A DNA stretch of 64,000 nt from a bacterium (GCA_963662285.2 CAXXMV010000001.1:672001-736000), one strand, 5' to 3'. Positions 1 to 12,501 are shown, numbered from the stretch's first letter. The notes: generated from the letters alone by a model not told the origin. Numbers and translations: made by a program.

Positions 1-2
1 AT

Positions 3-1118
3 ATCCTCAACTTCAGAGATATATACCCGCAGACGGAAACATTTGTCTTGGATATCAACTATCGCTCAACGCCCCAGATCATTGAAGCCTGTCAAACTCT
101 GATTCAGTTCAACACCCGCAAGATCGATAAACAGGTGCAAGCCCATAATACTGATGGTGATGCGGTTATTACTTTGGATTGTTCCAGTGAAGAAGATGAA
201 GCCTTACAGATCGTCAATGAGATAAGAGACTTGGTTGGTCGAAAGGGATACCATTATTCTGATATGGCGGTTTTGTATCGCGCCAACTATCTCAGCCGTA
301 CCATAGAAGAGATATTCTCACAATACAAGATTCCATACGCCATTGAAAACGGGATGAATTTCTATCAACGCCGCGAAGTTAAATGGTTGTTGGATTACAT
401 GAGAGTGATTAGCGCTCCAGATTCATGTGAAGGAGACGAAGCGTTACGCAGTATCATCAACATACCCAATCGTTACATCGGCAAGAAATTCGTGCAGGAA
501 TTGGAGCAATATGCATCTGAACAAGGCATCCATTTGTATGAAGCGTTGAAGACCATAACGATAGACGCCCCATATCTACGTCGTAATGTCAGGGAATTGG
601 TTCGCTTGCTTGATCCGTTAGTGGCAGAATCAGAATTCATTGAGCCAGCAGAACTGATTCACATTCTGCGTGAGGTACTCGATTATGACCGCTTTGTCGC
701 TGATGACGAGATTCCCAGCCCGGATGACGCCAAGATCGATAACCTCAATCAGTTGAAATTATCCGCCGCCAAGTTCGATGATGTAAAGAGTTTTCTGCAA
801 TATACCGAGACTTTTCAGGATAAAACGGTTGGTTCTGATCAAGAGGGTGTTCAGTTAATGAGCATCCACAAAAGTAAAGGCATGGAATTTTCCGTCGTAT
901 TCGTCATTGGCTTAATTCAGGGAATCCTACCATCCCACAGAGAAGGCGATATCGAAGAAGAACGTCGCATCTGCTTTGTAGGCATATCCCGCGCCATGCA
1001 ACTATTGTATCTCAGCACCTGCCAGGTTCATCTTGGTCAACCCGCCGTCAAGTCCGTATTTATGGATGAGATCGTTGGGAATCAAGAAAACTGCCATACC
1101 TCTTCACAGCAAGATTAG
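3..1118 (+). CDS. UvrD/PcrA-family SF1 helicase, C-terminal part (5' end outside window)
   Basis: NYRS, AVLYRAN, MSIHKSKGMEF and EERRICFVGISRA motifs; frame is open upstream of 48 to the window edge (ILNFRDIYPQTETFVL). Confidence 0.92.
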   Translation: MLNFRDIYPQTETFVLDINYRSTPQIIEACQTLIQFNTRKIDKQVQAHNTDGDAVITLDCSSEEDEALQIVNEIRDLVGRKGYHYSDMAVLYRANYLSRTIEEIFSQYKIPYAIENGMNFYQRREVKWLLDYMRVISAPDSCEGDEALRSIINIPNRYIGKKFVQELEQYASEQGIHLYEALKTITIDAPYLRRNVRELVRLLDPLVAESEFIEPAELIHILREVLDYDRFVADDEIPSPDDAKIDNLNQLKLSAAKFDDVKSFLQYTETFQDKTVGSDQEGVQLMSIHKSKGMEFSVVFVIGLIQGILPSHREGDIEEERRICFVGISRAMQLLYLSTCQVHLGQPAVKSVFMDEIVGNQENCHTSSQQD

Positions 1119-1172
1119 AGCGAAGCATTACACCCAAAACCAAATACAATTTCAAAATCATAGGAGAATAAT

Positions 1173-2102
1173 ATGTCTCAAGTAACCACATTAGGAGAAT
1201 TACGTGCGCAAGTCGAAAAGAAATCCCTGAACCATTGGGATGATTATATTCCAGTGAAGGATATTCAGTTCGTTGGATTACAGAAAAACATTATCCAAGG
1301 TGACGAGCATCTAATGAGACCAGCGGCGCAACGGGCGATCTGTAACCGGTTGGGAATACCAATTCAGTATTTACAGAAATGCGAGCCGTTATTGCAAGCA
1401 GTTAACCTGAACGAATGGCTACCCAAAGAACGCAATGATAATCTGTTTGTGAGATTCGACGGCAATGATATCAGGGCTATATTCACACCGCGTTACAAGC
1501 CAATCGATAACCTGCAAGTGTTGGATCGCTTATACGAACAGGGATACAACGATGATAATAAGATTCAATGCTCATTAGATGATGAGTTCTTTATGCTCAA
1601 TATCCCCGACAAAGAAAAATCCTTTCAAGTCCGGCATGGCGACCGAATGGAACCGGGGATCAGTATCGGAAACAGCGAAGTCGGTATGTCATCACTAACC
1701 ATTGCAGCATTTGTGCTCCGGCTTATATGCACCAACGGTTTGATCTCCACAACTAGCGTTGAATCTTCATACCGGCATGTATCACATCGTATTCTGAGCG
1801 AGTTCCCGCAGGTGCTCAATCAGGTAAGCATGGATCTCAACCGGCAGCGTAACCAATGGGAAATTTCCGCCGATAGCCACGTCGATAATCCAGAAGGCAC
1901 GCTTCGCTCATTCAATAGACAATACAATCTGGATAAGCAAGAAACCGAAGCAGTTGATTGGGCATGGAGTCAAGAATCAGGCGAAACCATGTTTGATATC
2001 GTGAACACATACACCAAAGCCGCGCAGCATCCCCAGTTACCAGCCGAAAGCGAATATCAGTTACAAAAAGTAGGAGGCAATATTCTGGCGATGATAAACT
2101 GA
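1173..2102 (+). CDS. DUF932-like mobile-element protein
   Basis: RY.PIDN, GISIGNSEVG and RLICTNGL motifs typical of DUF932-like phage/plasmid proteins; AGGAGA RBS. Confidence 0.7.
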   Translation: MSQVTTLGELRAQVEKKSLNHWDDYIPVKDIQFVGLQKNIIQGDEHLMRPAAQRAICNRLGIPIQYLQKCEPLLQAVNLNEWLPKERNDNLFVRFDGNDIRAIFTPRYKPIDNLQVLDRLYEQGYNDDNKIQCSLDDEFFMLNIPDKEKSFQVRHGDRMEPGISIGNSEVGMSSLTIAAFVLRLICTNGLISTTSVESSYRHVSHRILSEFPQVLNQVSMDLNRQRNQWEISADSHVDNPEGTLRSFNRQYNLDKQETEAVDWAWSQESGETMFDIVNTYTKAAQHPQLPAESEYQLQKVGGNILAMIN

Positions 2103-2198
2103 GAGCATTTCAAGTCTCCCAGGAAACATGAAATATCAGCCCCAAAAGAACCAGAATTCAAAAAACCGAAATTTAACAAACTAGAAACGAGGTGATAC

Positions 2199-2534
2199 AT
2201 GTCGAAAACCACTGCCCTGATTGATGAGATACGAGATGATTTGCAAAGGTTACAAGCGCTGTCCAATGAAATGAAAGTCAAATACCGTGAACTGGCCGCC
2301 ACACTATTAAGCGCCCGCGCATTGGTTCCAGAAAATCGCTGGGAAGCATGGGTATCAGCCAACCTGGAATTGGATGTATCAGTCGTCGAATCGGTGATGG
2401 AATGCGATATACCAGCGCTAGGCATCAACTCGCTGATGCTGCCATTAACTTTCGATGAAGTACAGCAAGCGTCAGAAAGTTCCAAGCCTAATGGAAGCCG
2501 GATTCACAACAGAAAATCTAAGAAAAAAGTTTGA
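2199..2534 (+). CDS. Hypothetical protein
   Basis: 111-aa ORF with GAGGTG RBS, co-oriented with upstream genes and followed by a terminator. Confidence 0.7.
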   Translation: MSKTTALIDEIRDDLQRLQALSNEMKVKYRELAATLLSARALVPENRWEAWVSANLELDVSVVESVMECDIPALGINSLMLPLTFDEVQQASESSKPNGSRIHNRKSKKKV

Positions 2535-2564
2535 TGCGTTGAAATGAATATTGATTTGCGATTG

Positions 2565-2590
2565 ACTCCATGAATTGTGGAGTTTTTTTT
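2565..2590 (+). terminator. Intrinsic terminator
   Basis: ACTCCA-TGAATTG-TGGAGT stem followed by a T run. Confidence 0.7.
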
Positions 2591-2619
2591 GTTGCATGAT
2601 GATACCTATGAATATGAAA

Positions 2620-2940
2620 TCAATCTGAACTATTTATAATCGCGTCGGGGATTGTGTATGGGAGTAGTACGGTATCTGCGGCGAAACTGAGTGGTAGATC
2701 AATTAATAGAAGCGGCAAAACTATGGGTGATGGTTTGTTTTCCTTATCGCTGGCGATCTCGCCCATTGTGCTTGCGTCGAAGCGTACTCCTGCATAGATT
2801 TTGTTATCAGGGGGATTCGGGAGTGGCGTGAAGCCTTCACCTACCGTCATCCCCATTAACGTGCCGATGCAGCCGGTTTGCATGAAAAGTACAAATGCCA
2901 TCAATGAGGCTGATAAAAAATGTTTGATTGATTTATACAT
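2620..2940 (-). CDS. YceK/YidQ-family small lipoprotein
   Basis: Lipobox-like TGC; IYAGVRFD and IDLPLSFAADTVLLPY motifs. Confidence 0.8.
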   Translation of the reverse strand: MYKSIKHFLSASLMAFVLFMQTGCIGTLMGMTVGEGFTPLPNPPDNKIYAGVRFDASTMGEIASDKENKPSPIVLPLLLIDLPLSFAADTVLLPYTIPDAIINSSD

Positions 2941-3100
2941 ATCAAGATTCTCCTAGATCAAAATATTTTATATAAATATCAATTCAAATTAGGATTGACA
3001 AATCTTTCATAATACAACGTCATCCAAAAAAAGAACGAGCGCCGCGCTTTCGCGTATTCGAGCAGATATTTCATGCTTTAACCGCTGGTTGATGTATTTT

Positions 3101-3198
3101 TGTCTGAATCAGGATTTGCTGGATTAAAGGATGTACTTGATAAAAGCCCAAACCAACATCCTGAGTATCCTTCTATCATGGGTATCCAGATTCAGACA
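3101..3198. repeat. Full-length copy of intergenic repeat family A (TGTCTGAATC...GATTCAGACA terminal inverted repeat)
   Basis: 10-bp perfect terminal IR extended by GGAT/ATCC units; one-armed copies at ~27233, 29436, 30657, 41779 and 62355. Confidence 0.75.
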
Positions 3199-3351
3199 GG
3201 CTTGGTAATCGCCCTGGCAGAACCTTCTGCTTTCGCTTACCAGCCCCGCCAAGGCAGTTTTTTGTTTGCACGGATTCTCACCGTGTCGGGGATGGAACTG
3301 GACTCCTTGTATACTCCTGAACGATTCGCACCGTCCAGATCTGATATTTGG

Positions 3352-3470
3352 GAGTACTGCACAAACGAAAACCCCTGTTGTTTTTCCTGTTGTTGGGGTT
3401 GTTCCTGTTACGATTTGCAGAACGGCAGTTCCTGGTGTTGTTGTTCCAGCTGCCGCCCCGAAGAACCCTG
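3352..3470 (-). repeat. DGR template repeat (TR)
   Basis: 119-bp ungapped match to 4990-5108; AAC-rich on minus strand (reads [39 protein letters not shown]); 24 mismatches at TR adenines. Confidence 0.97.
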
Positions 3471-4541
3471 AGCGTCCATCCCTTCTACTCGTTGGAAAAC
3501 CAACGGGCCTATTACTTTTTCCCGCAACCGCCAACTATCTGCATGAGATACATGAGCAATCCAACTCATAATTCGTTGTTTTGCATCGTTTAAGTTTACT
3601 TCTTCATTGCTATACGCTTTTTGCAATTCTCTGAATCTGCTTCTGGCTTTCTGTACATTGCCAGAGACAACGCGAACATAATTTTGAAATACCCTGTATC
3701 CCAAGAATGTTATACCTTTGGAAACTGAGAAAATTTGGCTCTTGATTGGATGGATAATCAATCGGTTATGCTCTAGAAATCTTTCAATTTGAATACGCCA
3801 TTCTTGTAATTGTTCTTTGGAATCAGATAAAAGTACGAAATCATCCACATATCGTAAATAAGTCTCACATTTCAATGTTTCAATTACAAAATGGTCAAAT
3901 GGATTCAAGAAAATATTGGCGAAATGCTGGCTGGTCAAATTACCGATGGGAATGCCGCGACGGCGTTCGATATGAGTAAAAAGGTCGTCACTTGGGAAAT
4001 ACTCCACGATTTCTTCTTGAGGATTACTGGCGTCAATGATGGTATCCAGGAGCCAAAGTGTATTGGGACACTTGATCTTTTTTCGCAATAATCCTTTGAG
4101 AATTGCATGATCTATGCTGGGAAAATATTTTCGGATATCTGCTTTGAAAACATAGTTATATCTTTTGGCATAATACTTTAGGGCTTGTATGGCCCGATGC
4201 GTTCCATACCCGTTTCGGTTAGCGAAGGTTTTGTTCGTGTATGTGTTTTCAAATATGGGCATCACTATTTGGCAAACCGCGTGATGGATCACTCTATCCC
4301 GGTAAGGCGCGGCGGAAATGTAACGTCTTTTGGTATCGAATACTTCAAAGCAGGTATAATCCCCAGGCCAATACGAATGATTTAGAAGTTCTTGCTGAAG
4401 TTTCATAAGATTCTTTTCCAAATCGTAGTTAAAGCGAAGCACTTGGTCATGATACCGCTTACCCCGTTGAGCGTTTTTTGCGGCGCGAACCAGGTTATCC
4501 CAGGTTACGATTTGAGAGAACAAGTTACTATGTCTTTTCAT
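3408..4541 (-). CDS. DGR reverse transcriptase
   Basis: [33 protein letters not shown] (DGR-type SQ motif), YLRYVDD and FLGY; 377 aa with no maturase or endonuclease extension. Confidence 0.97.
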
Positions 4542-4885
4542 GCTGACCTTCCCTGTTGCCGCAGCCAGCCGCCCAGCATGGAGCCGATTTCATTCATATT
4601 GACGCTGGCGAATTCGTATTGGCGGTTGCTGAAAATATTGAAATCTTTGAGAAGGCGGGTTTGAAATCGAATGACCTCCAAATCCACGTTCAGTTTTCGT
4701 AATATTTCGTTCCGTGCGCGACTATACCTTGCCTGGATAAGGCCTTCCAATAGACCATAAAGCAACGATGTCATCCTATTTCCCAAACCAAAGCGGTGAT
4801 CCCGCGGCATGCGGTTTAGATGGGGTATATACCATAGAATCAAATCGTAAGTTTTTTGTATGATGGGCAGTTCTTTTTCGCTCAT
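4538..4885 (-). CDS. avd: DGR accessory variability determinant Avd (four-helix bundle)
   Basis: 115 aa; ELPIIQKTYDL, PRDHRFGLG and EIGSMLGGW motifs; stop overlaps RT start (ATGA). Confidence 0.93.
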   Translation of the reverse strand: MSEKELPIIQKTYDLILWYIPHLNRMPRDHRFGLGNRMTSLLYGLLEGLIQARYSRARNEILRKLNVDLEVIRFQTRLLKDFNIFSNRQYEFASVNMNEIGSMLGGWLRQQGRSA

Positions 4886-4913
4886 TCTTATATACTCCCA
4901 AAAAAAATCGCGT

Positions 4914-4926
4914 CGGGCTTCGCCCG
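4914..4926 (-). promoter_or_regulatory. DGR target-recognition hairpin candidate (CGGGC-GAA-GCCCG)
   Basis: GC stem with a GAA triloop about 60 bp downstream of the VR stop codon, as expected for DGR homing hairpins. Confidence 0.65.
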
Positions 4927-4984
4927 CATTTTAAAATGGAAAAAATTTAAATGGCAAATGGTAAAATAGTAATATACCAAATGG

Positions 4985-7525
4985 CTACTGAGTCCTGCAC
5001 AAACGAAAACCCCCGCCGTCCCTCCCGCTGCCGGGGACGCTCCCGCAACGATTCGCAGAACGGCAGACCCAGGTGACGTAGTACCAGCTGCCGCCCCGAA
5101 GAACCCTGTACGAGCCAGAACTTGCACCTTCAGGATCATTGTTTGGAGAATTGGCATAATAATTGCTATCATACCAATCATTACACCACTCCCACACATT
5201 GCCGCTCATATCAAACAGACCAAATTCATTTGGTAATTTCGTTCCGACTTCATGGGTCTTTGATCCCGAATTGCTAGTATACCAGGCATAATCGCCAATA
5301 TTTCCATTTTCCCAATAATAATCTGTCGTTGTTCCTGCCCGGCAAGCGTATTCCCATTCAGCTTCTGTTGGCAAGCGAAAAGTCCCATATCCCATCTCAT
5401 TCAGTTTTTGAATAAAGGTCTGGCAATCATTCCAGGAAACTTGTTCTACTGGATGGTTGTCTCCACTGAAACGTGATGGATTGCTCCCCATCACCGCCTG
5501 CCACTGCGCTTGGGTCACCTCATACATCCCCATATAGAAATCTTTAGAGATTGTAACCTCATGAATCGGTTTTTCATCTGAATCACCAGAATTACTACCC
5601 ATATCGAAAGTACCCGCCGGGATTTTAACCATAACCAGTTCCTTCGCCCCGGCGGGGAGAGTTAGGGAAATGGTTTCAGTTTCTTTGTTTTCTGCTGATT
5701 TCAGAACTTCCTGCACCGCATAATAGGCGGATTTGGCATTGTAATTGTCATCGAATAGCAATGGAGTTCCCCAGCCGGGATAGGTTTCGGGAATCCAGGT
5801 ATACTTGTCTGTGAATCCCCACATGATTAATCCCGTACAATTATCCGCTAATAGACAAGCATCTAATATGCTGGCATAGATATTCGCTTGCTCGTCTAGC
5901 ATTGCTTGCGTTGCGGGCTGCTTCAGGCTGACATCCAGTTCTGTAATCTGGCATTCCACACCAATCTCTGCAAAACGATTCATATAAGCGATTAAATCAA
6001 CGGATGATGGCACTGGGGCAGGAGCATGGATTCCAGTGGATGGATCAGACGCATTGACGCCTAGATGCATTTGCAGCCCGACGCCGTCAATGGGAACGCC
6101 ATTTTCTTTGAGCGCTTTCACCAGATCATAGATTCGTTCCGATTTATCCCCCAAACCTTCCGGATCGTAATCGTTGTAGAACAGTTTAATGTCAGCACCG
6201 ATGTTTGATGCGGCTACGTAAGCATACTCAAAGGCCAACTCGACATATTCAGCACCAATCTTATCTGCCCAGAACGAATTTACACTGTTATCGTCTACTT
6301 TAGAACTTAGCCTAATAACAGGATTATCCACGTAATCTAACGCCAAATCTCCTTGATCGGGCACAGCCTCGTTTACCACATCCCAAATGATAACGCGTCC
6401 GGGAAAGTTATCAGCGAAGTGTGTGACGACCGTCTCAATATAACCATGGAGAAGAGCAATTGCATCGACCTTATCTAATTCAACCTGATGTTTCTCAAGC
6501 CACGATGGAAGATTGTTGTATTTCGGGTTGTGCCAAACCAGGGCATGGCCCCGCACATGCATGTCATTGGCGGCGGCGAACTCGACGATTGAGTCTGCAT
6601 CTCCCCAGTTGTAGTCTGAGGCAGTGATGTTTTCCCAGTTAATGTTTGGGTTATACAACAGCGCGTCCATCTTCATCTCATTTTCAGGGGTGATGATGTT
6701 AAACTCACGCGCCAGCGTAGCCTTGTAGTTCTGGTCGTTCCATGGGGTGTTTTGGATAGTTCCGTTACTGTTCCAGGTATTCATACGGATTGAAGAGCCT
6801 ATTTTGAAGTTGGCTTTGTCAGCGTAGGTGCGCAATCTTTCACCATCAGGCTCTATAACTAAAATTGAAGAATTATTCTCATCGGGAACTATACTAATTG
6901 TATTTGGATCATCCCCATCGCCATCCAAAAACGCGCCGTCGTAATATCTACCTGATTCGAGGAGATAGACGTCAAAGTTATCGATGTAAAAAGTTACCGT
7001 TCTACCGCTGTTTTCAGGATTGTGAAGCTGGATGAACGGATCGAATCCCAATCCCGGTGGAACAAACAAAACAGAAACCTGTCTCCATTTGTTGTGAAAT
7101 TCAGATAAACCCGCCGGGCTGTTGGTGGGCACATCGATAGAACCGCTTTTCCCAATCGCCCCTATCGTGATAGAGCCTTCAGTGCCGTCCATTCTTACAT
7201 TGCAGCGAATCAGGGCAGCGTTGATTGCGTTAAACGATTTATTAAAAATCATAACGCCTTCGCCCGGATCGGCGGTGACGCGAACCCCAATCCCATCCGT
7301 AGCGCTCTCGAATGAGTTGTTCGTGGGTATTGTCACGCCAAACTGAACATCGGCTAAAGGTAAAGCGCCAAAACCAGCGCCTTGTATTGTTATGCCATTG
7401 GCTGCTGCGGATTTACCAGCAAAATCAATACGTATAGGATCATCCTGGGCATAGATAGTCTGACATAATATAATACTAATAAATACATATAACACATTCA
7501 CGAATAAATTCTTCATAATAATCAC
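4985..7525 (-). CDS. DGR target: secreted protein with N-terminal unknown domain, GH10 (endo-1,4-beta-xylanase-like) domain and C-terminal FGE-sulfatase/CLec domain
   Basis: Signal peptide; GH10 motifs TPENEMK, RGHALVWH, WDVVNE, YNDY, GLQMH, ITELD; FGE-like motifs F.MGS, EVTQAQW, RLPTEAEWEYACRAG, DMSGNVWEW, RGGSW...GFR. Confidence 0.93.
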   Translation of the reverse strand: MIIMKNLFVNVLYVFISIILCQTIYAQDDPIRIDFAGKSAAANGITIQGAGFGALPLADVQFGVTIPTNNSFESATDGIGVRVTADPGEGVMIFNKSFNAINAALIRCNVRMDGTEGSITIGAIGKSGSIDVPTNSPAGLSEFHNKWRQVSVLFVPPGLGFDPFIQLHNPENSGRTVTFYIDNFDVYLLESGRYYDGAFLDGDGDDPNTISIVPDENNSSILVIEPDGERLRTYADKANFKIGSSIRMNTWNSNGTIQNTPWNDQNYKATLAREFNIITPENEMKMDALLYNPNINWENITASDYNWGDADSIVEFAAANDMHVRGHALVWHNPKYNNLPSWLEKHQVELDKVDAIALLHGYIETVVTHFADNFPGRVIIWDVVNEAVPDQGDLALDYVDNPVIRLSSKVDDNSVNSFWADKIGAEYVELAFEYAYVAASNIGADIKLFYNDYDPEGLGDKSERIYDLVKALKENGVPIDGVGLQMHLGVNASDPSTGIHAPAPVPSSVDLIAYMNRFAEIGVECQITELDVSLKQPATQAMLDEQANIYASILDACLLADNCTGLIMWGFTDKYTWIPETYPGWGTPLLFDDNYNAKSAYYAVQEVLKSAENKETETISLTLPAGAKELVMVKIPAGTFDMGSNSGDSDEKPIHEVTISKDFYMGMYEVTQAQWQAVMGSNPSRFSGDNHPVEQVSWNDCQTFIQKLNEMGYGTFRLPTEAEWEYACRAGTTTDYYWENGNIGDYAWYTSNSGSKTHEVGTKLPNEFGLFDMSGNVWEWCNDWYDSNYYANSPNNDPEGASSGSYRVLRGGSWYYVTWVCRSANRCGSVPGSGRDGGGFRLCRTQ
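4990..5108 (-). repeat. DGR variable repeat (VR) with IMH at 3' end of target gene
   Basis: Encodes [39 protein letters not shown]; differs from TR at 24 adenines plus one non-A site (4994) near the 3' end. Confidence 0.97.
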
Positions 7526-7643
7526 CTTTTTGAGATAATTTATAAACGCCTAACAAATTAGATCGTATTTGAACTGTATAATCAAGTGTGCTCCTTATTT
7601 TTGCGCTTGAGTGGATAATAATTCGATTTATCCAAAATCAATT

Positions 7644-7967
7644 TCACAGCAACCCTTTTACCCACATAATACAATTTTCAACGATTCCAAAGGTGGCAAG
7701 GATGATTGGTTTGACTTGTTCATTCCGCATTGCATATTCAAGCGCCCACAATGTTAGAATCGAATAAATGATTGTTAGAATCTTTATGATCAGTATTTCT
7801 TCCACTATGCGGCGGCATTTGGCGCGGAAGGGCAGTTCACGGAAGGTTGCTTTTCGGCGGCGGGGCCGAGGGATGAATACAATTTCCCCATACTGGTTAA
7901 CCTCATAGTCTCCCCGGCGATCATTGGTCGGCATGGTTCCAAGAGGACTTTGATACAATCGAGCCAT
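7644..7967 (-). CDS. Small membrane protein, last gene of E2-JAB-E1 operon
   Basis: GGAGA RBS, 18 bp after E1 stop; N-terminal DYEVNQYGEI, basic stretch and 1-2 hydrophobic segments. Confidence 0.75.
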   Translation of the reverse strand: MARLYQSPLGTMPTNDRRGDYEVNQYGEIVFIPRPRRRKATFRELPFRAKCRRIVEEILIIKILTIIYSILTLWALEYAMRNEQVKPIILATFGIVENCIMWVKGLL

Positions 7968-7985
7968 CTCTCCATCTCCTTTGGA

Positions 7986-9191
7986 TTAAAAGACTGTTTC
8001 GTGAGGCTTTAATGAATCCCATATACATTCTGGATCATCATCGGGTATTTCATCACATAGCATGGCAGGTTCCGAGTATTCAGGATTTCGCTTATTCTGG
8101 CAGATATCACAATTTGATCGCGGCCCGACAAAGCGCGTAGGGAAAATATCAAACGGTTTCTGAAAAGGATCATGGCCTTTGCAAAACGCTCCGCCAACAA
8201 ACCAAAAACAGCGGTCAGGATTTACAATCTGTGCATAGGCATCGTTGTGATTGCGCAAAAGAACGCCCAAGGCTATCTGGGCTTCCAGACTGGACACAAA
8301 GTTGACGGCTGCGTGCAAACCCGGCTGACCTTCATAATCGTCCCGGCCAGTTGCAGTACTATAATCAATGGGACCGCGTTTCTGTTGGACGACTACGCCT
8401 CCACCTTTTAAGCAACATAGGCAGGGCGTTTCCCATTCGGGAACATAAGCGAAGACCTCGCCGCCGATAGCATTTTCATAACAACCACCAAACACGGCGG
8501 GTGTTCGATGGTTTACCGCCCATTCATTGACCATAAGTTGAACAGCCAATATATCGGTGGATGCGATAACCAGACTGGATTGGGTAAACAAATCGTACAT
8601 AAACGTATCTGAATCGTCTTGAAAGATATCCCGTGGATAGCATTGAACCTGAGCATTGGGGTGAATATCCATAATCCGGTCTTTCACAACGGAGACTTTG
8701 TTGCGTCCAAGATCGCTGAATCCCCCTTCATGCCGCGAGAGGTTGGAGGCTTCCATCGTATCAGGATCAATCAAGATAAAATTCCCAACTCCAGCACGTG
8801 CCAATTCCAGGGCCAGGTAACTACCGCCAGTTCCACAACCGAAGATGGTTACAGTGGAATGTTGTAGAGTCTTCAGGCACGCAGGATCGAAGGGAGTCCG
8901 CGCAAACACATCATGATCTTCAATTACCTCAACCTGTGTGAGTGAAAGATGATTCTGACTCCAAATGAAAACCTTGGGCTGCGATGAGTGTGCGAAGACA
9001 AATAACCAGGGAGACTGGGGAGGCGTTGGAATTGCCTCTCCCCGGTGCAAGACCTGTCCAATTACAGATCGGTCGTGCGTCATTTCAGGAGCGCAGATAT
9101 GAGCCGTGTTTTCCTCTTCACGGATAACGCCATGAATCTTCATACCCGGTTTTAACTGCGACAGTGCGTGAGACGAAATAAACACTCTCAT
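7986..9191 (-). CDS. ThiF/E1-like adenylyltransferase with N-terminal extension
   Basis: IFGCGTGGS, LARAGVG, IDPDTMEASNLSRH and GRNKV motifs; CLCC and CDIC zinc pairs. Confidence 0.92.
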   Translation of the reverse strand: MRVFISSHALSQLKPGMKIHGVIREEENTAHICAPEMTHDRSVIGQVLHRGEAIPTPPQSPWLFVFAHSSQPKVFIWSQNHLSLTQVEVIEDHDVFARTPFDPACLKTLQHSTVTIFGCGTGGSYLALELARAGVGNFILIDPDTMEASNLSRHEGGFSDLGRNKVSVVKDRIMDIHPNAQVQCYPRDIFQDDSDTFMYDLFTQSSLVIASTDILAVQLMVNEWAVNHRTPAVFGGCYENAIGGEVFAYVPEWETPCLCCLKGGGVVVQQKRGPIDYSTATGRDDYEGQPGLHAAVNFVSSLEAQIALGVLLRNHNDAYAQIVNPDRCFWFVGGAFCKGHDPFQKPFDIFPTRFVGPRSNCDICQNKRNPEYSEPAMLCDEIPDDDPECIWDSLKPHETVF

Positions 9192-9197
9192 GATAAT

Positions 9198-10094
9198 TCA
9201 CCCATATTGGACGAGCGCTGATAGGGATTTTCTCATCCGACTATACTGCTGAATCGCTTTAGCTATCGATTCTCCCACTTGACGCTGCATTGGAATAAAA
9301 CGGTTACGCCACGCTCCATAACTTAATTCGATTAACAATTCTTTCGGCTTACTTTTATCAGATAAAACGTAAGCATAATGCTCTGCGCCCCGCTTTGCAT
9401 ACAACGCTGCATATTTGGCTTTGCCCGAATAAAAGACTGTTGTTTCAAAGCCATGAGCATTCATCTCTGATGTTTCGTCATCAATGAAATGTTGGAATGT
9501 AGAATGTATATCTTCTGGTATGGCAAATACATTTGATACAGAACAGGGTGTGGATGATTCGATTTTAAGTGATTGCGCAATATCTTTATGGGTGTCTTCG
9601 ACCCAGTGCAATTGCAAAGGATCGAAACCAGTCAGGTCTTTGCGCAATTCATAGGCGCAAATCCGCCATCCCTGTTTCCCCTTTTTATGATTCATTGTTA
9701 CTATGAATGACAAGAGGGGGCCAATTGAAAGATCCCAGCCGTCTTTTTGCACCATACGCACGGCTTGACGTAGATCGCCCTTGCTGGGCGTATGAAAGGA
9801 GCCTGGGTGTTTATGCCAGTATCCCAGTACATGAACCCTGTTCTGATGATGCCATTTGATGATATTGAGCAGCAGTTGATCGAATTCTGCATCGTTTGAA
9901 CAATGGATAATATCAAGATCCGAATTCGGACCAGCAGGAAAGGCATAGAGCAGCGCTGGATCAGAGCAAGTTCCAACCAGCAAACCGACGGTCTCCTGGT
10001 TGAGGTTTTTGTTGCATTCCGATTCGATGACGGCGAGACAAGACCAGGATGCAGGCATCACTTTGGCGAACAAAGGAATCGAGAGAATATTCAA
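9198..10094 (-). CDS. JAB/JAMM (Mov34/MPN) metallopeptidase with C-terminal extra domain
   Basis: ETVGLLVG and WHKHPGSFHTPSKGD match the E...HxHx7Sx2D JAMM motif. Confidence 0.88.
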   Translation of the reverse strand: MNILSIPLFAKVMPASWSCLAVIESECNKNLNQETVGLLVGTCSDPALLYAFPAGPNSDLDIIHCSNDAEFDQLLLNIIKWHHQNRVHVLGYWHKHPGSFHTPSKGDLRQAVRMVQKDGWDLSIGPLLSFIVTMNHKKGKQGWRICAYELRKDLTGFDPLQLHWVEDTHKDIAQSLKIESSTPCSVSNVFAIPEDIHSTFQHFIDDETSEMNAHGFETTVFYSGKAKYAALYAKRGAEHYAYVLSDKSKPKELLIELSYGAWRNRFIPMQRQVGESIAKAIQQYSRMRKSLSALVQYG

Positions 10095-10097
10095 CGA

Positions 10098-10529
10098 TCA
10101 AGCCCTCCTTCGCAGCAGAGGGTTGGATGATTCCCGCTGATTTTCCCATTTGTTGCCATCTGGCCAATGTTTGGTTCGGCGATACTCCTCATACGACCGT
10201 ATCCATCCACAAGCCCAATCGAGAATCACTTTACCGGACGTTTGAGGCCCAACATCATCAACCCCCCACAAACACAAACGACCATCGCCAAACATGTGGG
10301 GAGCAGGATTGATGCGGGGCGATGTAATGACAACTTCGGGGTGATCGTAGGGAAAACGGTCGGGATAATACATCATTATATTGTACAGTTTCCCTTTCCA
10401 GCGGAATTTCAGATAGACCTCTATCCTCCCTTTGCGTTGAGATATGCGGGTATTGGGATAGACCTTGTTGATTAAATTGGTTTCAAGCCGTAAACGTTCA
10501 GGCAGACGTATATACCAAGGTTTCATCAC
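10098..10529 (-). CDS. Prokaryotic E2 (UBC-fold)-like protein
   Basis: RLRLE helix, YPDRFPYDHPEV and PHMFGDGRLCL (His plus presumptive catalytic Cys, UBC-like spacing); AGGAGGTG RBS. Confidence 0.82.
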   Translation of the reverse strand: MMKPWYIRLPERLRLETNLINKVYPNTRISQRKGRIEVYLKFRWKGKLYNIMMYYPDRFPYDHPEVVITSPRINPAPHMFGDGRLCLWGVDDVGPQTSGKVILDWACGWIRSYEEYRRTKHWPDGNKWENQRESSNPLLRRRA

Positions 10530-10596
10530 TTCACCTCCTAGTAAGGCGTCAGATCAATTGGAAGACGCAGAATAAAGGAATCGATCAGCACACAAA

Positions 10597-10764
10597 TTAA
10601 TGCCAGGTCGTTTTCTTCACATCATCCCGCTGATCCTGCTTATCCAGGTTAATAGTGACAACCTCTCGATCCTGAGGCGACATGTCCCGTCCCAGTAAAG
10701 GGCGTGGTTCCGGAGCGTCGTGGCTTTCTTCTTCGAAATTGGGGGTATTGGGCTGATCAGGCAT
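10597..10764 (-). CDS. Unannotated 55-aa acidic peptide heading the E2-JAB-E1 operon (MPDQPNTPNFEEESHDAPEPRPLLGRDMSPQDREVVTINLDKQDQRDDVKKTTWH)
   Basis: Translated by hand; AAGGAGA RBS 6 nt before ATG; not listed in the ORF track. Confidence 0.75.
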   Translation of the reverse strand: MPDQPNTPNFEEESHDAPEPRPLLGRDMSPQDREVVTINLDKQDQRDDVKKTTWH

Positions 10765-10932
10765 AGTATTTCTCCTTCTATTTTTAAAGTATGATTAAAA
10801 AAAGACAAAACTATCCCTCAGAAGTGATTTATATTTACATAAACCACTCAAAACAATATGGTTATAGATAGAAATAAGGATGGGAAACTTAAAGGATGGC
10901 TCCCGAAGGCAAGGGCATAGAAGATCAATCGC

Positions 10933-10981
10933 ATCGCATTACTTACCCAGGTAATGTAATGCGATAATAAAATAAAGTCAA
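10933..10981 (-). promoter_or_regulatory. Sigma70 promoter (TTGACT-17-TACATT) overlapped by a 33-bp near-perfect palindrome
   Basis: -35 at 10981-10976, -10 at 10958-10953; palindrome ATCGCATTAC-TTACC-CA-GGTAA-T-GTAATGCGAT at 10933-10965. Confidence 0.7.
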
Positions 10982-11404
10982 GCGCTTTTTTCATTTTTTT
11001 ACACTAAAAGATTTGGTGGAATTCTAAGAAGCAACCGTAGAGCTAAAGATGCCGCGATTATCTGACTCCTGAGCTGAGCAAGGAGCAACCAGCACCAATG
11101 ACCACGCAAAGATAACGTATAACAGAAGCATTAATTGAATAGAGCCACGCTGAACCATGATTTCACCCGCATTTCGGAATAGCCAAAATAAATCGAATGA
11201 TAGGATTATCTCAAAAAACAGAAGAAGAGTCTACTTGAGAGAGAGATTTCAACATAAACAGCGGATAATATTTGATTTGCAGACTATTATATTTGTTATG
11301 GGCTGTGGAGGGTGCAATGAGTTATAACCTGACTTGATCCATCACTCCAATTACGATGCGAACGGCGCTTCTATTTTGAAATCGTGCAACGACCGTGCAA
11401 TACA

Positions 11405-11445
11405 GGGGTGGTTTGAGGGGGTCTGAGGGTGGTCTGAGGGTGGTG
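11405..11445 (+). repeat. Short tandem repeat, about 3 x GGTGGTCTGAG
   Basis: GGGGTGGTTTGAGGGGGTCTGAGGGTGGTCTGAGGGTGGTG, about 70 bp inside the att-like site. Confidence 0.6.
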
Positions 11446-11517
11446 TCAACGTGAGGGCAAGATGAGTAAGTGTTTCTAAATGCTTGCTTTACTGATATTT
11501 ACGTGAATTGATGAATG

Positions 11518-11562
11518 TGATTTGTAATCAGCCGGTCGGAGGTTCAAGTCCCCTCGCCAGCT
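11518..11562 (+). pseudogene. 3' half of tRNA-Thr(TGT); probable att duplication
   Basis: TGA-TTTGTAA-TCAG anticodon arm, GGTTCAAGTCC T-loop and CGCCAGC-T acceptor 3' strand; no D-arm or GCTGGCG 5' strand upstream. Confidence 0.85.
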
Positions 11563-11805
11563 TACTTATTTCACTAGACTTATAATGATATCCCCTTAAA
11601 AAATTAAATTTCTCTTACAGCAGTTATGGTAAAAATACTACGATGTTTCTATGTGGGATATCCCATTTAAGAAGCATATATTTTTCTATACGTGAGTTTT
11701 TCGGTTATTTTTTTATTTCTCATAGGTTGTTATTCTTGGACAAATAAGTAATATCATACAAGTATTAGAACAAAAGAGAAATAATACAGTTTTGAGGAAA
11801 TCACA

Positions 11806-12501
11806 ATGCAATTAAATGTCCAAGAGGTTTCACAATTGCTAAACGTATCAGATAAAACGATTTATCGATGGGTTAGCCAGGGTGAAATACCCGCATACAA
11901 ATTCAAGGATCAATATCGTTTCAACGAAGCTGAGATTCTTGAATGGGCGATTATCAGGAAAATCAATATTTCCACCAATTTATTAGACGCATCGGAAACG
12001 AAGAATATCGTAACGCCGAAACTCTCCGAGGTTTTGCAGAATGGCGGTATTTTTTATCGTCTGGAGGGCAATGATTCCAGTGCGGCGATCAGTTCATTGA
12101 TCAAATCTTTACCAATTCTCGATGCACCGGTGCGTCAATTTTTGTTGGAAAGTTACATAGCGCGTGAATCTCTTAATTCGACGGCTGTGGGTGACGGGAT
12201 CGCCATCCCCCATTCGCGGGTTCGCGTGGTGCCTTATATCGTACGCCCGATGGCAGCCTTAGGATTTCTTGAAAACCCGGTTGATTTTAAGGCCCTGGAT
12301 GGTCAGCCTGTCCAGATATTGTTCACTGTCTTAAGTCCCAATTTGCGGGATCATCTGCGCATTCTTTCCCGCTTCATGTTGGCATTAAACGATCCAGAAT
12401 TCCGGGAAGCTCTACGAAAACAGGAATTGCGTGAAACGATTTTGAACCATTGCCGCCGTATTGATGAAAGTTCTACCCCTTCAAAGAATCCTAATCCGTA
12501 A
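11806..12501 (+). CDS. Excisionase-type HTH fused to PTS EIIA(Ntr/Fru)-like domain
   Basis: LNVSDKTIYRWV...IPAYK HTH; RESLNSTAVGDGIAIPH phospho-His motif. Confidence 0.9.
   Translation: MQLNVQEVSQLLNVSDKTIYRWVSQGEIPAYKFKDQYRFNEAEILEWAIIRKINISTNLLDASETKNIVTPKLSEVLQNGGIFYRLEGNDSSAAISSLIKSLPILDAPVRQFLLESYIARESLNSTAVGDGIAIPHSRVRVVPYIVRPMAALGFLENPVDFKALDGQPVQILFTVLSPNLRDHLRILSRFMLALNDPEFREALRKQELRETILNHCRRIDESSTPSKNPNP

Follow-up and report, generated by a model that had tools for sequence, protein, structure and literature searches.

A bacterial E1–E2–JAB operon headed by a short, conserved peptide gene: a candidate conjugation system without a ubiquitin-like modifier

The operon of interest lies in a 64,000-nucleotide stretch of bacterial DNA (GCA_963662285.2, CAXXMV010000001.1:672001-736000; hereafter the window, numbered from its first base). 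Five co-directional open reading frames (ORFs) on the minus strand encode (i) a short acidic peptide, (ii) a stand-alone relative of the E2 ubiquitin-conjugating enzymes, (iii) a JAB/JAMM metalloprotease, (iv) a ThiF-type E1 activating enzyme, and (v) a small membrane protein (Table 1). A first-pass annotation, made from the sequence alone, had read these genes as a single operon, with a promoter and lacking any gene for a ubiquitin-like protein (Ubl). The five-gene arrangement is borne out by the ORF list and by matches to ThiF, to Prok-JAB and to the PADLOC models for E2 (E 2.7e-11), JAB (6.6e-9) and E1-E2 (5.5e-29). The intergenic gaps measure 3 nt (E2-JAB), 6 nt (JAB-E1) and 18 nt (E1-membrane protein), in agreement with the spacing of 3–18 bp first given for the last four genes, while 67 nt separate the peptide gene from the E2 gene; an AGGAGA sequence lies 7 nt ahead of the peptide ATG. 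The translations likewise uphold the initial reading that no product ends in GG: such a terminus is absent from all five. The promoter did not survive scrutiny. The region contains 11 consensus sites, compared with 9.9 ± 3.2 in shuffled sequences—chance level—and the site at 10981-10953 is thus not usable as evidence. An NCBIfam scan of the five products returned nothing above the model cut-offs, and the peptide and the small membrane protein belong to no family in Pfam, PADLOC or NCBIfam.

Table 1. Features of the operon and its surroundings (window coordinates).
Feature	Position	Strand	Remarks
Acidic peptide gene, 55 aa	10597-10764	-	ORF call; proposed modifier; ends ...VKKTTWH
Stand-alone E2 (UBC-like), 143 aa	10098-10529	-	ORF call; contains PHMFGDGRLCL, H78 and predicted catalytic C86
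JAB/JAMM metalloprotease, 298 aa	9198-10094	-	H94-x-H96-x7-S104-xx-D107; JAB residues ~10-165, C-terminal domain ~198-297
ThiF-type E1, 401 aa	7986-9191	-	ORF call; beta-rich N-domain (1-~90), then single ThiF/MoeB-type adenylation domain
Small membrane protein, 107 aa	7644-7967	-	ORF call; C-terminal half hydrophobic
Promoter-like hexamers TTGACT-17-TACATT	10953-10981	-	consensus match only
47-nt copy of tRNA-Thr(TGT) 3' part	11518-11564	+	right end of ~41-kb element

The most informative feature of the operon is its first gene. Related loci were collected from two sources. A metagenome scan with an alignment of 11 E2 sequences matched 28 stretches, of which seven were confirmed as loci; five of these (L008, L009, L010, L011 and L013) reach upstream of the E2 gene, and the other two (L007 and L012) start at it. 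Among 35 genomes of the same phylum, seven (including the genome that contains the window, G000) have an E2-family match at 1e-5, and the same operon is found in only one other of them, G023 (locus L023), where the peptide gene is also present. The gene-neighbourhood comparison proposed at the outset hence gives a uniform answer: a short ORF lies 5' of the E2 gene in six of the six related loci that have upstream sequence. Together with the window these loci represent about four lineages, since L009 and L010 are identical at the peptide and L011 and L013 are close to one another.

The first-gene ORFs range from 47 to 82 aa, with a conserved core of approximately 25–30 residues, and a Shine-Dalgarno-like sequence precedes five of the six peptide starts (the start chosen for L013 has none). 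The front of the peptide is acidic and poorly conserved; the C-terminal end is conserved. Every copy carries the C-terminal motif hydrophobic-K-x3-[W/F][H/Y], followed by 0–2 residues: the peptides end in ...VKKTTWH (window and L023, with no tail), ...VKPTTWH-IM, ...VKKSTWY-EG, ...IKQHRFY-H and ...IKQHRFY-C. Comparison of the window with L023 reveals eight synonymous and no non-synonymous differences in the last 12 peptide codons, and 15 synonymous versus 13 non-synonymous differences across the last 36. By this codon pattern, the end of the peptide is under purifying selection, and the upstream ORF is, on the evidence of its sequence, a real and selected gene.

The same module recurs in a second form, fused to the E2 itself. 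An N-terminal extension of at least 18 aa is present in 54 of the 150 best E2 relatives. In 24 of these 54 extended relatives, the motif [ILVM][KR]x2-4[WF][YHFAWGR] falls within the last 25 residues before the E2 domain, compared with 79 of 2700 shuffled extensions. Two relatives, P0020 and P0043, contain three head-to-tail copies of a unit of about 42 residues (a helix, a hairpin and ...IKPxRW[HFY]). The borders between units are sharp: RW[HFY] closes each copy, and what follows the aromatic pair without any gap is either another unit or the E2 domain. In its head-to-tail copies and sharp borders, this arrangement resembles polyubiquitin.

A separate observation concerns about ten long E2 relatives (P0030-P0034, P0038, P0041, P0046, P0051 and P0080; 325–395 aa), in which several zinc-ribbon motifs precede the peptide-like module. 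The genes that follow the operon in L008 and L010 likewise encode cysteine-rich proteins, with hydrophobic C-terminal helices; these proteins and the zinc-ribbon E2 relatives may be related accessory or target modules.

For the E2, Pfam returns only UQ_con at E 0.006, under its cut-off. A profile search of the PDB gives UBE2W-type proteins (1e-6) and a CBASS E2 (8hsb; 5e-6) as the best solved matches, where CBASS denotes an anti-phage signalling system that is based on cyclic oligonucleotides. Residues E16, H78 and C86 are invariant across the profile of 43 E2 relatives, and H78 occupies the place of the histidine that, in the E2 superfamily, lies roughly 8–10 residues ahead of the presumed catalytic cysteine (here C86). 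With these profile matches and the invariant His and Cys, the ORF appears to be a genuine E2 relative, as had been supposed. A word-based search found only three close relatives. When 1.84 billion representatives were searched with a hidden Markov model (HMM) profile built from these close relatives, 334 proteins were recovered at E<=1e-3, with 77 remaining at <=1e-10 and four at <=1e-30; by these counts the family is rare. The precomputed Pfam label carried by the close relatives is PF26395 (a label only). Viral contigs yielded no relative of the E2 or the E1, and a plasmid collection no match to the E2; two ThiF genes from Bradyrhizobium in that collection have similarity to the E1 that is confined to its core. 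One further candidate locus (L002), from a scan of genome contigs with a single protein as query, was discarded as a false positive: it is a UvrA gene sharing one word.

The JAB protein scores 28 bits against Pfam Prok-JAB (cut-off 25), and the JAMM residues E34, H94, H96, S104 and D107 are invariant in nine sequences. Its structural model (mean predicted local distance difference test score, pLDDT, 82) has BRCC36 as the top Foldseek match (E 2e-8), followed by Rpn11 and CSN5, such that the E...HxHx7Sx2D zinc site and the predicted MPN fold together point to a JAMM/MPN+ protease. The C-terminal ~100 residues form, in the model, an alpha-beta-alpha domain (a helix, a meander of 4–5 strands, and a helix). 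An hhalign comparison with the E2 profile aligns this domain to the N-terminal half of the E2 family, up to the YP..P motif (probability 69%, E 4.4e-5); distant JAB members carry PPEYPLNPP at the YP..P position, and the domain has no catalytic His or Cys. We conclude, with moderate confidence, that it is an inactive E2-like domain of the ubiquitin E2 variant (UEV) kind. The idea that the glycine at the C-terminus of the JAB protein marks a hidden Ubl end was rejected: the residue is not conserved, and the domain is E2-like rather than beta-grasp.

The E1 matches Pfam ThiF at E 1.6e-34 and has 60 relatives at E<=1e-20. In a 39-sequence alignment, RTPF, GxGxxG, NxSRHE, D213, C257xxC260 and C361xxC364 are invariant or nearly so. 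The model (pLDDT 84) aligns with MoeB/ThiF with a VIA-align Z of 27 over residues 89–365, and the protein has the Rossmann adenylation domain, the GxGxxG motif, the Arg/Asp set and the CxxC...CxxC zinc site of ThiF/MoeB-type E1s. After ThiF and MoeB themselves, the best solved sequence matches are PaaA and MccB. The crossover-loop region (residues 264–275, pLDDT <50) contains no conserved cysteine; the invariant residues Y277 and S278 follow it. Residues 1–90 are modelled confidently (pLDDT ~90) as a mostly beta domain, for which a Protein Atlas search gave sub-threshold matches only. Judging from their conserved residues, all three enzymes—E1, E2 and JAB—look active.

What would these enzymes act upon? 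Pfam (25 island ORFs, 1e-5) and PADLOC (12 island ORFs) detected neither a CD-NTase (cGAS/DncV-like nucleotidyltransferase) nor a beta-grasp protein, nor did scans of the five operon products; together these scans took in island ORFs of at least 100 aa plus the operon products. The PADLOC check suggested in the first-pass annotation matched the enzyme models and, among the 12 island ORFs scanned, no cyclase, and the claim that Ubl and CD-NTase are both missing holds: the related loci with upstream sequence carry the short ORF instead.

We propose that the role of a Ubl is played here by a peptide of some 50 residues, which is trimmed by the JAB protease, adenylated by the E1, carried on the E2 cysteine and attached to a target, probably in defence. 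By analogy with known cascades we give this reading a probability of roughly 0.45. That the peptide is the moiety activated and transferred is the most economical explanation because of its Bil-like position ahead of the E2, its fusion to E2 in relatives, its tandem copies and its tails of 0–2 residues, which recall those of Ubl precursors; it is favoured, too, by the presence of three apparently active enzymes and of no other conserved C-terminus in the operon. The pathway might run as follows. The JAB protein would remove the 0–2 residues past the aromatic pair and, in relatives, free the module from the E2 or from tandem repeats. The E1, a homodimer of the ThiF type, would hold the peptide, perhaps via its extra N-terminal domain, and adenylate the C-terminal carboxylate. 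The activated peptide would then pass to Cys86 of the E2, either directly or via an oxyester; the latter route is possible because the crossover loop has no conserved cysteine but is followed by the invariant Tyr277 and Ser278. Finally, the E2 would join the peptide to a target amine, and the JAB protein may be able to reverse the attachment. The broader suggestion made at the outset—a modification pathway with a non-Ubl modifier—is supported in that related loci carry no Ubl or CD-NTase that this copy has lost, no matching described system was found and the E2 appears real; the modifier step itself we infer.

Several points weigh against this proposal. The peptide has a bulky aromatic-His/Tyr C-terminus, while, to our knowledge, every characterised Ubl ends in Gly. 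Contact between the peptide and the E1 or E2 is inferred by analogy, and structure prediction of two E1 copies plus the peptide (both as alignments) gave scores of 0.41, 0.43 and 0.38 versus 0.33 for the control, which is no evidence either way. The fold of the E1 N-domain is unmatched, since the fold-search matches cover residues 89–378 only, and a beta-rich domain of this kind is unlike the peptide clamps known as RiPP recognition elements (RREs; RiPPs are peptides made by the ribosome and modified after translation). The conserved Lys and aromatics could equally be explained as a docking motif, and the N-terminus of the E2 itself bears a comparable K-x-W-[YF] element, which would suit a part in structure or docking. 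Of the 54 N-extended E2 relatives, 30 lack the motif as defined; gene context is known for only about four lineages; and the conjugation targets are candidates only.

These points bear directly on the alternatives. The peptide may instead be a detached N-terminal arm of the E2—docking, regulatory or auto-inhibitory—with the E2, the E1 or the E2-like domain of the JAB protein as its binding partner, leaving the E1 to activate another C-terminus provided in trans, whether that of a host or phage protein or of the small membrane protein. Though doubtful, this is the strongest of the alternatives. It would account for the fact that relatives mostly carry the module in cis, joined to the E2, and for the element at the E2's own N-terminus, and the module might also be a ligand of the inactive E2-like domain in the JAB protein; in addition, a hairpin-like GEI(V/I) motif in the membrane protein resembles the first half of the fused modules, and, as CBASS illustrates, the substrate that is activated need not be a small dedicated protein. 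On the other hand, sharp-bordered tandem repeats and ORFs that stop 0–2 residues past the motif are features of a processed modifier, no other operon product has a conserved C-terminus, and a docking role leaves the JAB protease without an obvious substrate.

An unlikely possibility is that the operon encodes a RiPP-like pathway, in which the E1 would (as do MccB, PaaA and IndF) adenylate the peptide C-terminus for intramolecular cyclisation, onto the conserved Lys or the indole for instance, or for ligation to a small molecule, with the JAB protein removing an acidic leader and the membrane protein serving in export or immunity. In favour of this, the best solved sequence matches of the E1 include PaaA and MccB, each of which carries an additional N-terminal domain; the peptide, with its acidic, poorly conserved front and conserved end, has the outline of a precursor, and multi-copy precursors are frequent in RiPPs. 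ThiF-like enzymes are also reported to form the Trp-indolylamide macrocycle of a streptococcal RiPP. This pathway is, however, difficult to reconcile with an E2 whose His and Cys are invariant in every locus, and the fusion of peptide to E2 in many relatives would be odd for an exported product. We know of no role for an E2 in RiPP chemistry. Phe replaces Trp in L011 and L013, Arg replaces Lys in three of 28 motif-bearing proteins, and there is no conserved transporter. A 2025 review of ThiF-like enzymes, searched for these terms, makes no mention of JAB, JAMM, E2-like, CBASS or Cap2. Last, and very improbable, the locus could be the decayed remnant of a type II CBASS or Bil operon that has lost its CD-NTase or Ubl and in which the upstream ORF is meaningless. 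This would fit the PADLOC matches to the E2, JAB and E1-E2 models, and to an oligonucleotide-cyclase model, the E2 matching the C-terminal part of the latter. All of these models we take to be CBASS-associated. Decay is contradicted by the recurrence of the four- or five-gene layout, without Ubl or CD-NTase, in about four lineages and by the purifying selection on the end of the peptide; moreover, the catalytic residues are all intact, and the E1 and E2 are encoded by separate genes, unlike Cap2.

Turning to the last gene of the operon, the small membrane protein combines an N(Q/E)YGEI(V/I) motif at the N-terminus with a basic stretch and with C-terminal helices that are hydrophobic. Homologues lie directly 3' of the E1 gene in L023, L008 and L010, that is, in four of the five loci that reach past the E1, the window included; in L011, an excisionase-like helix-turn-helix (HTH) gene and a tyrosine integrase gene are found there instead. 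Within the operon, the membrane protein is the best candidate for a target, anchor or effector. Beyond the operon, a restriction-like gene of the GmrSD type (DUF262; 9641-11398, minus strand) is located in L023 ~1.5 kb upstream of the peptide gene, and L010 has an rve transposase and a winged-helix regulator, while the neighbours of L008 contain no known families. Two of the metagenome copies (L011 and L010) thus have an integrase or transposase beside them.

A second E2 architecture was observed in the same phylum (L025, L026 and L027, three copies in G012; L029 in G033; L030 in G032). Its order is JAB protein (355–409 aa), E2 (149–161 aa), small protein, E1 and a protein of ~1000 aa. The small protein is fused to the N-terminus of the E1 in L026; its helix-hairpin-like start recalls the fused modules described above, and it has no aromatic end motif. 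L028 (G004:C93, 604-1768) encodes a remote E2 relative of 165 aa and, immediately after it, a protein bearing a patatin-like GGG.KG motif; the two resemble a pairing of an E2 with a phospholipase, distinct from the system studied here.

The operon sits at the right end of an integrated element of ~41 kb, as indicated by the tRNA copy in Table 1: a complete tRNA-Thr(TGT) gene lies at G000:C1:642297-642369, and the copy, 41.2 kb downstream, matches it at 47 identical bases. Of this copy, the 43-nt tRNA 3' fragment at 11519-11561 has one further copy in the genome, inside the complete tRNA-Thr(TGT). The element, whose existence had been correctly surmised, spans G000:C1:642297-683564, and positions 1-11564 of the window are its right end. 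According to Pfam, it encodes a family-A DNA polymerase of its own, an NrS-1-type primase-polymerase, a single-stranded DNA-binding protein, a PD-(D/E)XK nuclease and a UvrD helicase; it also carries a sigma-54-type AAA regulator and a type I restriction-modification system, accompanied by a YgjP peptidase and a Schlafen/AlbA ATPase. Together with the retroelement described below and the restriction-like, integrase and transposase genes beside related loci, these genes fit a mobile or defence setting, which suggests a role for the operon in defence against phages or other mobile DNA.

Three further observations were made in and around the element. The 416-aa ORF beside the tRNA gene has no Pfam or PADLOC match at 1e-5, in a position where one would look for an integrase. 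Directly downstream of the operon, on the minus strand, is a complete diversity-generating retroelement (3352-7525), consisting of a target gene encoding a GH10 domain and a C-terminal FGE-sulfatase/CLec domain (4985-7525), bAvd (4538-4885) and a reverse transcriptase (3408-4541); its template and variable repeats (119 nt; 3352-3470 and 4990-5108, respectively) show 25 mismatches, and 24 of these coincide with template adenines. Just outside the island, on the plus strand (11806-12501), an HTH_17 domain (excisionase/MerR-like) is fused to a phosphotransferase system EIIA-2 domain, an unusual architecture for a regulator.

The new element of this work is a conserved, selected peptide module, free in this operon and fused or repeated elsewhere, which turns the notion of a non-Ubl modifier into a concrete, testable hypothesis. 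In all characterised E1/E2 systems known to us, the substrate activated is a Ubl of the beta-grasp fold or, for CBASS, the cyclase tail. Should the peptide prove to be conjugated, the E1/E2 cascade would be older and more general than the ubiquitin fold, the operon would constitute a minimal, genetically encoded peptide-tagging system, of use for study and possibly as a tool, and bacterial mobile-element and defence biology would gain a new class.

How does the operon compare with known systems? Each described operon type is marked by a Ubl of the beta-grasp fold, by a CD-NTase, or by a triple fusion linked to a metallo-beta-lactamase (MBL) gene, and none has a short peptide in the passages compared (PMC1779556, PMC10557695, PMC11601596, PMC11601603 and the Cap2 preprint); operon types 6a-6e were set out by Iyer et al. 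2006 (PMC1779556). No published E1-E2-JAB operon with a peptide was found in open full text, subscription papers and the supplementary operon tables of preprints lying outside the search, and the initial claim that the locus matches no described system accordingly stands for this literature.

The likeness to Bil, in which the genes run Ubl-E2-DUB (deubiquitinase)-E1 (PMC10557695), is one of layout: the order modifier position-E2-JAB-E1 is identical, the genes are separate, there is no E3, the setting is a defence island, and the JAB protein would be expected to pre-process the modifier. The differences lie in the proteins. BilA is a beta-grasp protein ending in Gly, whereas the first gene here encodes a 55-aa peptide ending in WH with no family match; the JAB protein here carries an extra E2-like domain; and the E1 departs from that of Bil in having one adenylation domain (89–365) after a beta-rich domain of ~90 aa, with no conserved crossover-loop Cys. 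In Bub, the JAB domain cuts a Ubl-E2 fusion (BubAB) after the Ubl Gly, freeing the Ubl, and the E1s use a Tyr oxyester (PMC11601596). The fusion of one to three copies of the module to the E2 N-terminus in relatives recalls the type I Bub arrangement, and the E1, with an invariant Tyr and Ser and no conserved Cys at the crossover loop, may be compared with the Tyr oxyester of Bub. Against this, the E2 of Bub (types I and II, "6E") uses Ser, while the predicted catalytic Cys here (C86) is invariant in 43 sequences; no DUF6527 serine protease (BubE) occurs in the five products (Pfam E<=0.1) or among the island ORFs; JAB and E1, joined as BubCD in Bub, are separate genes; and the modifier is not beta-grasp.

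Type II CBASS provides the best HMM matches of all three enzymes, and with Cap2 it offers the example of an E1 whose substrate is a flexible C-terminal tail rather than a beta-grasp protein (Cap2 preprint). Here, however, the families scanned in the island include no CD-NTase and no cyclic-nucleotide effector, and where Cap2 is an E2-E1 fusion, the two enzymes are encoded separately, on either side of the JAB gene. The 6A-MBL systems have an E2-E1-JAB triple fusion where this operon has separate genes; the scan of the island found no MBL gene, and the NCBIfam 6A-MBL model scores 23 and 63 bits versus a cut-off of 320. The PRTRC system was also rejected (ThiF model E 0.008, 15 bits versus a cut-off of 145). 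PaaA and MccB adenylate short peptides, both with an extra N-terminal domain (2025 ThiF-like enzyme review), and share with the present E1 a homodimeric ThiF core and, potentially, a short ribosomal peptide substrate. Those pathways have no E2 or JAB, and the N-domain here is beta-rich and of unmatched fold.

On its sequence, then, the operon lacks defining features of type II CBASS, Bil, Bub and 6A-MBL. It is best described as a new variant among bacterial E1/E2/JAB conjugation systems, with a modifier that would be categorically new if the peptide is truly conjugated. Another short peptide used as a protein tag is Pup, which is intrinsically disordered and is attached through its C-terminal Glu side chain by a glutamine-synthetase-like ligase; Pup uses no E1 or E2. 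As a tentative generalization, somewhat short of an even chance, the operon may represent a bacterial E1-E2-JAB cascade with a short, disordered, aromatic-ended peptide tag (free, tandem or E2-fused), one that may use an E1 Tyr/Ser oxyester and may target small membrane or phage proteins. Such a peptide would join Ubls and CD-NTases as the third type of E1/E2 substrate and would be convergent with Pup.

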